Part shown: piece by piece, positions 40,175 through 59,436 of the stretch | Numbering within the stretch: position 1 is the first letter of the stretch | Layout of the letters: each line of letters starts with the position of its first letter | Source of the DNA: a bacterium | GTDB lineage: Bacteria > Patescibacteriota > Minisyncoccia > Phycocordibacterales > UBA12079 | DNA length: 64,000 nucleotides | Direction of reading: 5' to 3' | Assembly: GCA_018401295.1 (NCBI GenBank) | Contig: JAGYLJ010000002.1 | Location: 26,727 to 90,726, forward strand | Program-made: the position numbers and the translations under genes | Notes under the pieces: model-generated | The model's database searches: none | Told to the model about the DNA's origin: nothing | What the model saw: only the letters and a program-made list of their open reading frames with translations

Positions 40175-40324
40175 TTAGAGTATTTCTACCATTGTTTCTA
40201 TAAAAAGGAAGAGTCCTTTTAGAAATAAACCAGCCAGCATTGAAAGTATTATAGTTCCAGATGGTCCATCGTACCATCTTTTTTTTCTTGCTAGATTTTT
40301 TAACTTAGCAATCTTTTTTCTCAT
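40175..40324 (-). CDS. Possible 49-aa tail-anchored membrane peptide
   Basis: Hand translation MRKKIAKLKNLARKKRWYDGPSGTIILSMLAGLFLKGLFLFIETMVEIL. Confidence 0.3.
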   Translation of the reverse strand: MRKKIAKLKNLARKKRWYDGPSGTIILSMLAGLFLKGLFLFIETMVEIL

Positions 40325-40377
40325 GATCTTATTATATCATTTTGTAGGAGATTGGTAATTTTGGTTGTGGATATTTG

Positions 40378-40448
40378 TTGCCAGACTAGGATTCGAACCT
40401 AGATACCATCCTCCAGAGGGATGTGTCCTACCATTAGACGATCTGGCA
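40378..40448 (-). tRNA. tRNA-Gln (CUG)
   Basis: Hand-folded cloverleaf: acceptor TGCCAGA/TCTGGCA (U1-A72), anticodon loop CTCTGGA, T-arm CTAGGTTCGAATCCTAG; CCA not encoded. Confidence 0.9.
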
Positions 40449-40454
40449 ATGTAA

Positions 40455-40694
40455 TTATTTTATTTTACTTTTCAATATCTTTTTACCTTTTGCTGATTTA
40501 TAAAGTCTTTCGGCTTTGTATGCTTCATATTTATTATCATAGTTTTCAGAATAAATAAGTTTTATTGGCAATCTTCCTTTTGTTGAAAAAACTTTCCCTT
40601 GATTGTGATATTTTAATCTTTTATCTAAATTAGAAGTGCAACCAATATACAAATTATTATCTTTTAAGCTTTTTAATACATATATTTTATACAT
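40455..40694 (-). CDS. GIY-YIG nuclease family protein (79 aa)
   Basis: MYKIYVLKS...LYIGCTSNLDKRLKYHNQG; the track ORF extends to 40754 through a tRNA fragment. Confidence 0.8.
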   Translation of the reverse strand: MYKIYVLKSLKDNNLYIGCTSNLDKRLKYHNQGKVFSTKGRLPIKLIYSENYDNKYEAYKAERLYKSAKGKKILKSKIK

Positions 40695-40702
40695 GGAAAT
40701 TT

Positions 40703-40753
40703 CTACCATTAGCCTCGCCCGTGGCCGGTCTACGGCCGAGGGACGATCCGGCA
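40703..40753 (-). repeat. Duplicated 5' fragment of tRNA-Gln interrupted by a 29-nt GC-rich hairpin
   Basis: TGCCGGATCGTC-[CCTCGGCCGTAGACCGGCCACGGGCGAGG]-CTAATGGTAG compared with TGCCAGATCGTCTAATGGTAG in the real tRNA. Confidence 0.75.
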
Positions 40754-40817
40754 ATTGGTAGATTTGGTTTTTATCTATGTTATAATATTACTTATTATTA
40801 AAGAAAAAACAAATAAT

Positions 40818-41204
40818 ATGAGTTATAAAAAAATATTACTTTTATTTATTATTATAATTTTAGTTGGAGTAGGCATCAATTTCTTTTTAAAGGAAAAGAC
40901 AGTGGAAGCCCCTATAACTCCTGAATCTCCTTTACTTGGTGGTGATCGTGACGAACATGGTTGTATTGGTTCGGCTGGTTATTCATGGTGTGAGGCTAAA
41001 GCTGAGTGTTTAAGGCCGTGGGAAGAACAATGGGATGATTCATGTGGAGTTGTAGGAGGTGATCCCGTTGGGGTTGTGCCTCCACTTGGAGGGGAACCTA
41101 TTAACCCTTGTACGGAGGAAGCTAAGATATGCTCAGATGGTTCTGCTGTTGGAAGATCAGGACCTAATTGTGAGTTTGAAAAATGTCCTGATGAAGAAAT
41201 TTAG
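40818..41204 (+). CDS. Secreted Cys-rich small protein
   Basis: N-terminal TM/signal sequence and 8 Cys; start MSYKK at 40818. Confidence 0.6.
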   Translation: MSYKKILLLFIIIILVGVGINFFLKEKTVEAPITPESPLLGGDRDEHGCIGSAGYSWCEAKAECLRPWEEQWDDSCGVVGGDPVGVVPPLGGEPINPCTEEAKICSDGSAVGRSGPNCEFEKCPDEEI

Positions 41205-41257: not shown

Positions 41258-42565
41258 ATGGTTTATATGAAATTACCAATAATAAAAAATATAAAACAAT
41301 TAGCAATAAATTCTCTGAGACAGGACGCCCTAGATATTCTGGAGGTTGGTTATGAATCAGTATTAACTGAAAAAGTAATGGTGGAAAATATCACTTTAAA
41401 AGGTCAGGTTCTTAAAATTAAGAATAAAAAATACGATCTAAAAAAGTATAAGAGAGTTTTTGTTGTTGCTATTGGTAAATGTGCTAATCAATCAGCAAAA
41501 GTTTTAGAGGAAATTTTAGGTGATAAAATTTTTAATGGTGTGGTCCTAGATATTGCTCCTGGTCAGTTTAAAAAATTAAGGTCAGAAGTTGGAACTCATC
41601 CATTTCCATCAGAACAGAATATATTAGCGACTAAATCTATTTTACAAGTATTAAAAGAAGCTAAAGAAAACGATTTGGTTATAACTATTATTTCTGGTGG
41701 GGGCTCTTCTCTCCTATGTAATCCTGTTGATGGAATTGAGAGTGAGGTTTTAAAAGATATTACACAATTATTAATGAAGAAGGGGGCGACTATTGAAGAA
41801 ATGAATATTGTTAGAAAACATTTATCTAAGATTAAAGGGGGTCAATTAGCTGAATTAATTTATCCAGCTAAGTTGGTCTCTTTAATTTTTTCAGATGTCC
41901 CCAAGGACGATCTATCTTTGGTAGCTTCTGGTCCGACAGTTAAAGATGAGTCAACCAAAGAAGATGCTCAGCTTATACTGGAGTCTTACTTAGGCGATGG
42001 AATGTTAGATGAAAATGATAACTACGTTTCTTTTTTGAAAGAAACTCCTAAAGATAAAAAATATTTTGAAAAAGTTGATAACATCTTGGTGGTTAGTAAT
42101 AAAATTGCTTTGAAAGCGATGCAAAAAAAAGCGGAAGAATTTGGTTATGAGGTAAATGTAGATTCTGATGAATTAGAAGGTGAAGCTAGAGAGCTAGGAA
42201 GAAGTTTAGTAAAACAAGAATTTCCTTCAAAATCTTGTCAAATTTGGGGAGGCGAAACAACAGTTCACATTAGAGGGGATGGACAAGGAGGAAGAAATCA
42301 GGAATTTGTTTTAGGCGCCTTAAATGGTTTGGAAGATGATATTCTTGTCATGGCTGTGGCTTCTGATGGACGGGATAATACTGATGTGGCGGGAGCTTTG
42401 GCTGATGGGGAGTTGTTGAAAAATATCCAAAAAGATGGAATTGATGTTGATGAGTATCTAGAAAATAATGATTCCTATAATTTTTTTAAGAAAGTGGAAA
42501 CTCAAATTAAAACTGGTCAAACAAGTATCAACGTCGCTGATTTTTATTTGATTTTGAAAAAATAG
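41258..42565 (+). CDS. Glycerate kinase (MOFRL family, glycerate 2-kinase-like)
   Basis: 435 aa; ...ISGGGSSLL...GGETTV...GGRNQEF pattern. Confidence 0.8.
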   Translation: MVYMKLPIIKNIKQLAINSLRQDALDILEVGYESVLTEKVMVENITLKGQVLKIKNKKYDLKKYKRVFVVAIGKCANQSAKVLEEILGDKIFNGVVLDIAPGQFKKLRSEVGTHPFPSEQNILATKSILQVLKEAKENDLVITIISGGGSSLLCNPVDGIESEVLKDITQLLMKKGATIEEMNIVRKHLSKIKGGQLAELIYPAKLVSLIFSDVPKDDLSLVASGPTVKDESTKEDAQLILESYLGDGMLDENDNYVSFLKETPKDKKYFEKVDNILVVSNKIALKAMQKKAEEFGYEVNVDSDELEGEARELGRSLVKQEFPSKSCQIWGGETTVHIRGDGQGGRNQEFVLGALNGLEDDILVMAVASDGRDNTDVAGALADGELLKNIQKDGIDVDEYLENNDSYNFFKKVETQIKTGQTSINVADFYLILKK

Positions 42566-58127: not shown

Positions 58128-58320
58128 AAATATTTTTTGAACTCACTCCACTATGCTCCGTGCCACGCTGTGCTCTCATCCTTTCAGTCGTCGGGGCGTA
58201 TAACAAGGGATATATGGTTCAACCCTCGGCTCGGGCTTCACCCAAATTTTTATTCCACTTCGTTCCAGAAAAACTTCTGATATCCCTAACGTTATGCAAA
58301 ATTTCGCTTCCCGCCAGAGG
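58128..58320. repeat. Non-coding element X2 (attC-like imperfect palindrome 58196-58297)
   Basis: Blocks GCCACGCTGTGCTCTC, GTATAACAAGGGATAT, CCTCGGCTCGG, CCCAAAT and AACGTTATGC are shared with X1. Confidence 0.6.
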
Positions 58321-58518
58321 CGGACAGGCGCTCCATTTTGCATAATGTCCACGCTTAGCAGCGCTGTTCTGCTCAGCAAAGCTTCGCATAACAGCTGCTT
58401 ATCCTAAATTTCTATCGAAAAGAAATCTTTTCTCCAGAAACTTCGGATCAAGCGCGGACATTACATTCAATTGACTCGCCTAAGAAAAATTTATACAAAT
58501 TATACAATTAATAAAAAT

Positions 58519-59260: not shown

Positions 59261-59332
59261 GGCCCTATCGTCTAACGGTTAGGACATCGGCTTTTCAAGC
59301 CGGCAATCCGGGTTCGATTCCCGGTAGGGTCA
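59261..59332 (+). tRNA. tRNA-Glu (UUC)
   Basis: GGCCCTATCGTCTAACGGTTAGGAC...; anticodon loop TTTTCAA; T-arm CCGGGTTCGATTCCCGG. Confidence 0.9.
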
Positions 59333-59436
59333 CAAAACGTTAAGAAAAAGTAAACCGCTTTACTTTTTTGGTTTTGTGGAGGCGGAGCGATGTTTTTGCT
59401 TCCACCCAGAAGCAAAAACCGCGAGCCGTGGATAAA

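Follow-up and report, generated by a model that had tools for sequence, protein, structure and literature searches.

In a 64-kb window of a Patescibacteria genome (the whole stretch analysed here, 64,000 nucleotides), a gene for a small stand-alone GIY-YIG nuclease lies directly ahead of an intact tRNA-Gln gene and behind a displaced copy of the 5' end of that tRNA, itself split by a GC-rich palindrome. This arrangement probably represents a small selfish cassette whose target is the D-arm region of tRNA genes and which supplies a replacement tRNA 5' segment. The comparisons below, in which L numbers denote loci and P numbers public protein records compared in the analysis, demonstrate the anatomy of the locus and how far it is conserved, the correspondence of nuclease clade with tRNA type, the presence, absence and turnover at syntenic sites and the products of decay. 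The tRNA genes of the window were called with ARAGORN and Rfam was used for RNA family scans. On the minus strand the order of elements is tRNA 5' fragment part 1, GC-rich palindrome, fragment part 2, GIY-YIG open reading frame (ORF) and tRNA-Gln(CTG), preceded by a conserved upstream block:

40774–40814, minus strand: presumed promoter/leader block of the resident tRNA-Gln, ATTTGTTTTTTC.TTAATAATAAGTAATATTATAACATAGA, kept across relatives
40742–40753, minus strand: displaced tRNA-Gln nucleotides (nt) 1–12, TGCCGGATCGTC, equal to nt 1–12 of the tRNA at the empty site L208
40713–40741, minus strand: 29-nt GC-rich imperfect palindrome CCTCGGCCGTAGACCGGCCACGGGCGAGG, with arms CCTCGGCCGTAG and CCACGGGCGAGG
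40703–40712, minus strand: second part of the displaced 5' end, CTAATGGTAG, made up of one additional C and tRNA nt 13–21
40455–40694 including the stop, minus strand: gene for a stand-alone GIY-YIG (PF01541) nuclease of 79 amino acids (aa), Slx1/UPF0213 class
40377–40448, minus strand: intact tRNA-Gln(CTG), called by ARAGORN and by Rfam (RF00005, 62.3 bits)

The nuclease ATG is at 40694 and the stop ends at 40455, with an 8-nt spacer (aaatttcc) between CTAATGGTAG and the ATG and a 6-nt spacer (ttacat) between the stop and tRNA-Gln. The order of elements, the 29-nt hairpin, the 79-aa GIY-YIG ORF and both spacers had been given in an earlier account of this stretch (the original prediction) and were correct to the base. 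The duplicated segment is present a second time as the first 21 nt of the intact tRNA-Gln(CTG); without the palindrome and one C the fragment is identical to tRNA nt 1–21 at 20 of 21 positions, confirming the description of a tRNA 5' fragment split in the D-loop, and TGCCGGATCGTC differs by 1 nt from nt 1–12 of the window's own intact tRNA. The palindrome was inserted at the D-loop site GTC/TAA, where 30 nt have been added including the following C, and one G.G mismatch fixes its orientation. Its G+C content is 79%, against about 33% in the window, it occurs once in the window even allowing 3 mismatches, and the 29-mer was found 0 times in 100 shuffles. The 12-mer TGCCRGATCGTC occurs exactly twice in the window, in the tRNA and in the fragment, against 0.13 occurrences expected. 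The upstream block occupies the divergent intergenic space ahead of a plus-strand gene starting at 40818; aligned between the window, L201, L203 and L205 it is largely invariant, it is present too in L208–L211, and it presumably acts as a promoter. Promoter and terminator consensus scans of the locus gave background level only, and an Rfam scan of 40250–40900 gave no family but tRNA even at E=0.1 and no intron family at E<=1. An RNA-level explanation of the locus was rejected on the lack of any such Rfam family, the lack of covariation and a fold energy for the fragment region that is unremarkable on its own (z = -1.97).

Collinear relatives were found via the neighbouring DUF4147/MOFRL gene (window 41258–42565), whose product shows 71–81% aa identity across 9 assemblies. 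The tRNA-Gln locus next to this gene was found in the following states, the percentage being the identity of the neighbour:

L211 (71%): upstream block, then intact tRNA-Gln; empty on both sides
L208 (79%): upstream block, then intact tRNA-Gln directly; the tRNA 5' end is TGCCGGATCGTC, as in the window fragment
L201/L202 (81%): upstream block, then intact tRNA-Gln directly; 5' side empty
L210 (75%): cassette of the window type, sharing its left junction
L203/L204 (79%): 21-nt fragment, two other small GC hairpins at nt 21/22, another GIY-YIG subfamily, then the tRNA
L205/L206 (78%): as L203, without the nuclease gene
L209 (76%): as L203, without the nuclease gene

The L210 junction reads CTAATGGTA followed by aaacttttt and the ATG, as in the window. 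Empty sites (L201/202, L208 and L211) and occupied sites (the window and L210), the comparison proposed in the original prediction, were thus both recovered, and the occurrence of empty, same-cassette, other-subfamily and nuclease-less states at one syntenic locus supports insertion. Close relatives differ at the tRNA-Gln locus through gain, replacement and loss. Loss was also seen directly in L172, which differs from the near-identical L007 by a clean 205-bp deletion of the ORF that kept its first 8 nt and last 24 nt, and L090 keeps an apparent ORF 3' end, with a similar remnant in L114. The presence in relatives of the fragment without a GIY-YIG gene had been put forward as grounds for refuting insertion; such fragments are indeed present (L172, L090, L114, L205/206 and L209) but they do not refute it, since they are decay products and not counter-examples. 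On the 3' side of the intact tRNA-Gln, L209 (~440–560) and L210 (~880–1000, minus) carry a remnant resembling the acceptor stem and T-arm only, TGCyGrATAGGATTCGAAA[...]GAATCCTAG...GGCAAC, with an insert of about 110 nt in the T-loop.

Linkage to tRNA genes was measured in 80 protein-seeded loci, taken from one genome per species and scanned for tRNAs, and in the window's own family, defined at >=50% identity in a clustering of 123 GIY-YIG domains (n=55, with 50 non-redundant copies). A same-strand tRNA starts -30 to +60 nt from the nuclease stop in 43 of the 80 protein-seeded loci, and a tRNA ends within 250 nt upstream of the nuclease gene in 13 of them. In the window's family 49 of 55 members have a same-strand tRNA-Gln (41) or tRNA-Glu (8) at -30 to +120 nt from the stop, the observed starts ranging from -22 to about +120 nt, bearing out the suggestion that GIY-YIG paralogues would be found beside tRNA genes. 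All 8 Glu-linked genes belong to one subclade, with both anticodons covered, and the Gln-linked subclades mix CTG and TTG anticodons. The ORF ends inside the tRNA, at the D-loop TAA (Gln) or TAG (Glu), in 31 of the 50 non-redundant copies. Distant GIY-YIG subfamilies adjoin tRNA-Ser, Tyr, Asn, Met, Val, Pro and Thr, and one locus in a Prolixibacteraceae genome (L078) is a tandem array of three tRNA-Pro–GIY units. The same architecture recurs in >60 independent assemblies (NCBI, JGI, ENA, Logan), and the cassette family is widespread in Patescibacteria; related forms occur in Omnitrophota, Bacteroidota and other groups. The window itself has one nuclease copy only, its tRNA-Glu, Ser and Val genes being unoccupied.

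A palindrome-bearing fragment lies upstream of the nuclease gene in 47 of the 50 non-redundant cassettes, and the other 3 have none upstream. In 39 of the 50 the palindrome is direct and follows tRNA nt 12 (..TCGTC/palindrome/CTAAYGG..), which is the arrangement of the window (type A), so that the search for the GC-rich hairpin elsewhere recommended in the original prediction found it at the same D-loop position. In 8 of the 50, distributed over several nuclease subclades, the palindrome is inverted at about nt 6/7 and the fragment ends exactly at nt 12 (type B). Past the palindrome the fragment reaches nt 21, 26, 32 or ~50, depending on the locus. Compared with the local tRNA at 23 loci, which between them have 16 different acceptor sequences, it has a mean of 0.74 mismatches per 12 nt, against 2.93 for non-self tRNAs, and it is identical to the local tRNA over 12 nt at 14 of the 23. 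Two positions thus recur: nt 12/13, where type A cassettes have the palindrome and type B cassettes their junction, and nt 21/22, where the window and L210 have the cassette junction and L203 its hairpins; both point to the D-arm as a site of breakage. L002, L025, L031 and L121 have additional, degenerate tRNA-Gln copies in which palindromes occupy the D, anticodon and T loops. GC-rich blocks near the 80 nuclease genes are only about 1.8-fold enriched, a figure confounded by tRNA sequence, and were not used as evidence.

The hairpin had been described as compositionally foreign in this genome; rather than a unique insert of foreign origin, it is one member of a dispersed palindromic repeat family. 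An exact-pattern scan found it in at least 120 metagenome stretches, with at least 130 copies among the matches listed, and returned 0 copies from viral contigs. The identical 29-mer occupies the same tRNA position in L107, L121 and L142. Among the 130 copies listed, to which the counts in this paragraph and the next refer, 29 lie in a tRNA D-loop context, 19 of them with a nuclease gene within 150 nt downstream, and 3 more in an inverted or nested tRNA context; about 100 are dispersed, without a nuclease or tRNA nearby. The palindrome has a C on both sides in 98% of copies, and its length is mostly 39 nt in D-loop copies and mostly 26 nt in dispersed copies. Since the arms (CCTCGGCCGTAG / CTACGGGCGAGG) do not vary in sequence and their single G.G mismatch is itself fixed, pair counts yield no covariation by which to judge either of two candidate structures. 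A GTAG motif lies inside the stem, paired with CTAC, and tRNA-context copies are preceded by the CGTC of the tRNA, dispersed copies by C only. There is no other copy elsewhere in the 64-kb window, and about 168 kb of sequence flanking cassette-bearing loci contained a single sequence resembling an arm, with 2 mismatches to the consensus, as against at least one copy per cassette, a near-absence indicating that in the genomes with a cassette the palindrome behaves as a cassette component and not as a random sample of an abundant repeat. Tandem or nested palindromes occur beside the gene, with four copies in L097, and L003 and L004 have identical nuclease genes with two palindromes and one, respectively.

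Dispersed copies are often in-frame insertions within essential genes. The host genes below were assigned by Pfam for LepA, ArgRS and the DnaG Toprim domain and by reading the translations for the others, and about 25 more such copies were recorded:

L085 3338–3363: palindrome copy in RpoC
L160 1196–1221: palindrome copy in a PurL-like gene
L113 1606–1631: palindrome copy in FtsK
L164 3426–3478: palindrome copy in LepA
L150 5836–5861: palindrome copy in ArgRS
L190 2012–2040: palindrome copy in PheT
L099 2992–3017: palindrome copy in DnaG (Toprim)

Of 101 dispersed copies, about 77 add a length divisible by 3 (e.g. 27, 30 or 54 nt) when the palindrome is counted together with one C; the peptides encoded are PLGRSPTGEA, GLAHRSTAEG or ASPVGLWPR according to strand and frame. 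No report of in-frame palindromes in Patescibacteria was found in open-access papers or on bioRxiv. Five of the ~100 dispersed palindromes either adjoin the 5' end of tRNA-Val or Leu or are at most 50 nt away from tRNA-His or Gly (L156 2162–2187, L162 1763–1787, L135, L141 and L168), more than the <1 given by a rough estimate from tRNA gene density, with no formal test.

Other hairpins accompany other nuclease subfamilies. In L034, L036, L039, L056, L064 and L073 such subfamilies stand beside tRNA-Ser, Pro or Gln, within ~150 nt of hairpin-bearing tRNA copies, whose D- or T-loops contain different GC-rich hairpins (e.g. CCCCGC..GCGGGG); in L036 a 60-nt hairpin is present on both sides of the GIY-YIG gene. 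These six loci suggest that hairpin partners are subfamily-specific. In the window, positions 58200–58480 form a G+C-richer non-coding stretch upstream of a small membrane-protein gene, in which a hairpin (CCCGCCAGAGGCGG, ~58310) resembles CCCGCCnnnGAGGCGGG, one of the hairpins accompanying the L203/L205 cassettes; an Rfam scan of this stretch returned nothing beyond one chance-level match. The unoccupied tRNA-Glu(TTC) of the window (59261–59333) has the D-arm ATCGTCTAACGGTTAGGAC used by the Glu-linked nuclease subclade and a consensus-like promoter directly upstream. A second UPF0213 subfamily (MxYYTYILEC...GAHYTKIRRP) is found on the 3' side of tRNA-Gln at the following positions:

L201 1838–2098: second-subfamily gene
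L210 434–703: second-subfamily gene
L002 3372–3600: second-subfamily gene
L118 7734–8024: second-subfamily gene

Tandem repeats with CGAACGAA[T/G]GTGAGG precede this gene in L201 (2110–2260) and in L002. With different subfamilies on either side, both flanks of tRNA-Gln are hot spots for nuclease subfamilies.

The composite structure of the cassettes has left its mark on annotation. A 99-aa ORF with a TTG start (MPDRPSAVDRPRARL...) covers the window gene, and the family N-terminus, MY.VYVLKS, confirms the earlier interpretation of that start as read-through of the tRNA fragment. An exact look-up of the 79-aa product found no match, the public call being the 84-aa P0001 with its ATG inside the tRNA fragment. 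The called N-termini MPDRPSAVARPRARLMV... and MPGRPSAVARRLGLRARLMV... of homologues are translated fragment plus palindrome, and many homologue C-termini (...HCGIV, ...HWGIV, ...ALSSNG, ..CGIVPRP) are translated tRNA 5' ends. The extensions of P0001 (84 aa), P0003 (99 aa) and P0012 (110 aa) translate tRNA fragment, palindrome or tRNA 5' end, and many N-terminal extensions of 20–55 aa among records of the wider family may have the same cause. A predicted protein of 1,390 aa, P0209, contains 20 separate GIY-YIG-like stretches and may be a read-through of a degenerate tandem cassette array. Contigs often end within 100–300 nt of cassettes (L010, L014, L016, L023, L037, L047, L208 and others), and it appears that short-read assemblies break at the duplicated tRNA segments and the palindromes.

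The window ORF matches PF01541 (GIY-YIG) at E=1.9e-14 (54.2 bits against a cut-off of 22.6), and the residues invariant among 44 family sequences (Y16, G18, R26, H30, P43, E50, A58, E62 and K66) are all present in the window protein. An AlphaFold (AF2) model was of a confident single domain, with a predicted local distance difference test score of 95.7. In a sequence search the protein matched BH0048 (1zg2) at E=8e-12, EF2693 (1ywl) at 4e-11, Slx1 at 1.6e-4 and I-TevI at 0.012. Foldseek also placed 1zg2 at the top, with template-modelling (TM) scores of 0.6–0.72 for 1zg2 and Slx1 (Slx1 up to 0.72, root-mean-square deviation 1.5 Å), and gave I-TevI and UvrC at E>0.1 only. By sequence and predicted structure the window nuclease is a stand-alone Slx1/UPF0213 (YhbQ/YazA)-type domain. 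The Slx1-like prokaryotic cluster has been characterised as a stand-alone domain of minimal size that lacks a conserved C-terminal Asn and has no established function (Dunin-Horkawicz et al., PMC1564403); YhbQ and YazA belong to it, and Slx1-type enzymes cut stem-loop bases and branched DNA (PMC7017083). The wider Slx1-like/UPF0213 family amounts to 5,664 clusters at 50% identity (E<=1e-3). The window protein is likewise a single domain of 79 aa, with no Asn among the invariant or near-invariant columns of the 44-sequence profile. No second or DNA-binding domain was found from the end of the ORF at 79 aa, the profile scan or the AF2 model, and TIGR01453 matched no more than the first 29 residues, scoring 19.5 bits where the cut-off is 56. 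Without a DNA-binding domain the protein fails the defining feature of a classical homing endonuclease; of the homing or insertion event originally proposed, insertion into the tRNA gene is supported by the comparison of relatives, and the nuclease is not of the classical homing kind. The nuclease nevertheless looks functional, its catalytic-type residues being invariant and its fold confidently predicted. PHROGs gave no match to the nuclease, and PADLOC only PDC-S14 (E=7e-4 over 28 residues), a match too weak for a defence-system identity, which was rejected. A phage origin was rejected too, given the 0 palindromes in viral contigs, 1 viral locus for the nuclease family and no PHROG match.

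If the locus is a selfish cassette, its structure and behaviour can be reconstructed as follows. The cassette would comprise the nuclease ORF of ~80 aa, a copy of the first 12–21 nt of the tRNA gene and a few leader bases, ~3 of which would be visible as a CAT/His codon ahead of the tRNA. On entering the D-arm region of a tRNA-Gln or tRNA-Glu gene already present, the cassette would displace upstream the resident 5' end, which would stay as a dead fragment behind the resident promoter, and the 5' segment supplied by the cassette would join the resident 3' part to give an intact tRNA. As the tRNA would be restored by the cassette itself, the essential gene would never be lost. The nuclease gene probably shares a transcript with the tRNA, read from the tRNA promoter. 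An active enzyme might nick or cut structured or specific DNA at the tRNA D-arm, and spread could proceed by nuclease-initiated recombination between tRNA alleles in a homing-like gene conversion. The hairpin would be a copy of a mobile palindromic repeat which nearly always splits the displaced fragment in these cassettes, and it might benefit the cassette by destroying the leftover target or by breaking up a direct repeat prone to deletion.

Several observations weigh against this account. A bare catalytic domain with no DNA-binding module makes sequence-specific homing hard to picture, and the closest relatives of the nuclease are structure-specific nucleases. A published phylogenomic analysis treats prokaryotic Slx1-like proteins as largely vertically inherited repair enzymes and derives the selfish GIY-YIG proteins from the other, UvrC-containing lineage (PMC1564403). 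The intact tRNA of an occupied allele keeps the putative D-arm target, so that self-immunity is hard to account for. The left junction is variable (nt 12, 21, 26, 32 or ~50), which fits erosion or several events and not one precise site. No transfer vector was seen among the loci examined, and the nuclease family is nearly absent from viral contigs (1 locus). Nuclease genes about 80% identical at the nucleotide level sit in unrelated flanks, and this could reflect purifying selection instead of transfer. Pair counts in the palindrome show no covariation to support a structural role.

Two other readings, both unlikely, were weighed against the cassette. In a REPtron-like system the nuclease would mobilise the GC-rich palindromes as the REP-associated tyrosine transposase (RAYT) does repetitive extragenic palindromes (REPs), with the 5' region of tRNA-Gln as home or safe haven for the gene and a master copy of the palindrome. 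The adjacency of nuclease gene and palindrome, 14–32 nt apart in 47 of 50 cassettes, would follow from this, as would the pairing of other subfamilies with other hairpins (the two hairpins hp1/hp2 of L203, the flanking pair of L036), the pseudo-tRNAs riddled with palindromes in L002, L025, L031 and L121 and the tandem and nested copies of L097; the activity of Slx1-type enzymes on stem-loop bases and branched DNA (PMC7017083) and the existence of CGTC-tagged REP and Rickettsia palindromic element (RPE) families without a known transposase (PMC3733652) also agree with it. However, genomes with the nuclease show essentially no spread of the palindrome, as seen in the rest of the window and in the ~168 kb of flanks, the dispersed copies form another length class (26 versus 39 nt), and the ~100 dispersed copies listed have no GIY-YIG gene in their available flanks, which is expected of non-autonomous copies yet gives no support. 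This reading may be complementary to that of a cassette. No more probable is a host gene with incidental scars, that is, a housekeeping nuclease (acting for example on replication-transcription conflicts or R-loops) co-transcribed with the tRNA, the fragments having arisen by tandem duplication or slippage and the palindromes having accumulated in dead copies. The Slx1/UPF0213 family is regarded as repair-related and vertically inherited, L078 has its tandem tRNA-Pro–GIY array, and the fragment equals the local tRNA in most loci, as local duplication would yield. Against a host gene stand the close relatives with no gene or a different subfamily at the same site, the decay of the ORF by deletion while the tRNA remains intact, the single copy in the window with its tRNA-Glu, Ser and Val genes unoccupied, and the ORFs that run into the tRNA with a D-loop stop, which resemble insertion junctions and not an evolved operon.

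The footprint of a larger integrative element (a duplicated attachment site left by an integrase) or the insertion of a group I intron or other ribozyme is very improbable. Direct tRNA repeats flanking foreign DNA are typical of tRNA-targeting elements, and group I introns are common in the tRNA genes of Patescibacteria (PMC13011429), but here the insert is of ~300 bp with the GIY-YIG ORF as its sole coding content, the duplicated segment is the 5' end and not the 3' end of the tRNA, no integrase was found in any locus examined, the tRNA is uninterrupted and the Rfam scan of the locus gave tRNA alone. Such origins are effectively refuted by the anatomy. The slimmest of the alternatives is chance similarity or an assembly artefact; many contigs do break near cassettes and the fragment fold energy is ordinary, but chance is excluded by the absence of the 29-mer from shuffles, the 12-mer count and the replication of the architecture across >60 independent assemblies.

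Beyond the selfish cassette itself, the wider idea that Slx1/UPF0213 proteins in many lineages are the nucleases of a new class of mobile DNA, cutting structured DNA at tRNA genes and GC-rich palindromes and propagating 5'-replacement cassettes together with RPE/REP-like palindromes, including the in-frame copies, is put forward tentatively and is rather doubtful as it stands. If true, it would constitute a GIY-YIG counterpart of RAYT/REP and a candidate for the missing enzyme of transposase-less palindromic repeat families. The loci also offer a testable handle on the function of bacterial Slx1-like (YhbQ/YazA, UPF0213) nucleases, which have no known role, and account for recurrent annotation errors in Patescibacteria, namely translated tRNA and palindrome extensions, missed pseudo-tRNAs and contig breaks.

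The cassette would belong to a known kind, selfish nuclease genes targeting tRNA genes, but a search of open-access literature and bioRxiv for GIY-YIG nucleases with tRNA genes, Patescibacteria, palindromes or YhbQ/YazA did not find the arrangement, and the cassette itself is without a prior description that we could find. The nearest parallel is SegB in the tRNA gene cluster of phage T4 (PMC2330249), likewise a GIY-YIG gene beside or between tRNA genes. As with the cassette, Seg genes of T4-like phages show presence/absence polymorphism with no intron or intein, and spread by break-induced co-conversion of flanking markers has been proposed for them as it is here. Seg enzymes, however, are of ~200 aa with DNA-binding modules and belong to the homing endonuclease/UvrC lineage, whereas the window protein is a 79-aa catalytic domain of apparent Slx1/UPF0213 type; the cassette is chromosomal, unlike the phage-borne Seg genes, and has a partial duplication of the target gene and a palindrome that Seg lacks. 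YhbQ of Escherichia coli, YazA of Bacillus subtilis, 1zg2, 1ywl and eukaryotic Slx1 are the best sequence and structure matches and share the same minimal domain. The genes yhbQ and yazA are not known to lie next to tRNA genes. Neither PMC1564403 nor PMC7017083 reports selfish behaviour, duplication of a target or linkage to tRNA genes for the Slx1/UPF0213 cluster.

The palindrome family and the REP/RAYT system (PMC3733652) have in common short, dispersed, GC-rich imperfect palindromes, some tandem or nested, that flank a nuclease gene. The neighbour in a REPtron is an HUH/Y1 transposase and in the cassette a GIY-YIG nuclease; no RAYT was seen, and none was specifically searched for. REPs have an unpaired terminal GTAG (or CGTC) tag (PMC3733652), whereas in the palindrome GTAG is within the stem, and the host is a member of the Patescibacteria. 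With Rickettsia palindromic elements the family shares in-frame insertion in essential genes, here of 27, 30 and 54 nt. Those elements, treated by Ogata et al. in 2000, are reportedly GC-rich palindromes in-frame in genes, and the copies in essential genes of the reduced genomes considered here would provide a parallel in an unrelated phylum.

The tRNA introns of Patescibacteria (PMC13011429) occur in the same phylum and have the same kind of target. They are of group I and II, some carrying homing endonuclease genes, and the survey lists HNH, LAGLIDADG and PD-(D/E)XK enzymes with no mention of GIY-YIG (PMC13011429). The cassette differs in having no ribozyme, in its position in the D-arm and not the anticodon loop, and in keeping the tRNA by duplication and not by splicing. 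Integrative elements that target tRNA genes replace the 3' end, are kilobases long and encode a tyrosine or serine integrase. They resemble the cassette in that the element supplies the displaced tRNA segment and leaves a direct tRNA repeat, but the cassette replaces the 5' end, is of ~0.3 kb and encodes a GIY-YIG nuclease only. Besides self-splicing introns and 3'-end-replacing elements, carrying a replacement 5' end would thus be a further means by which selfish DNA can, without being lethal to its host, occupy an essential tRNA gene.

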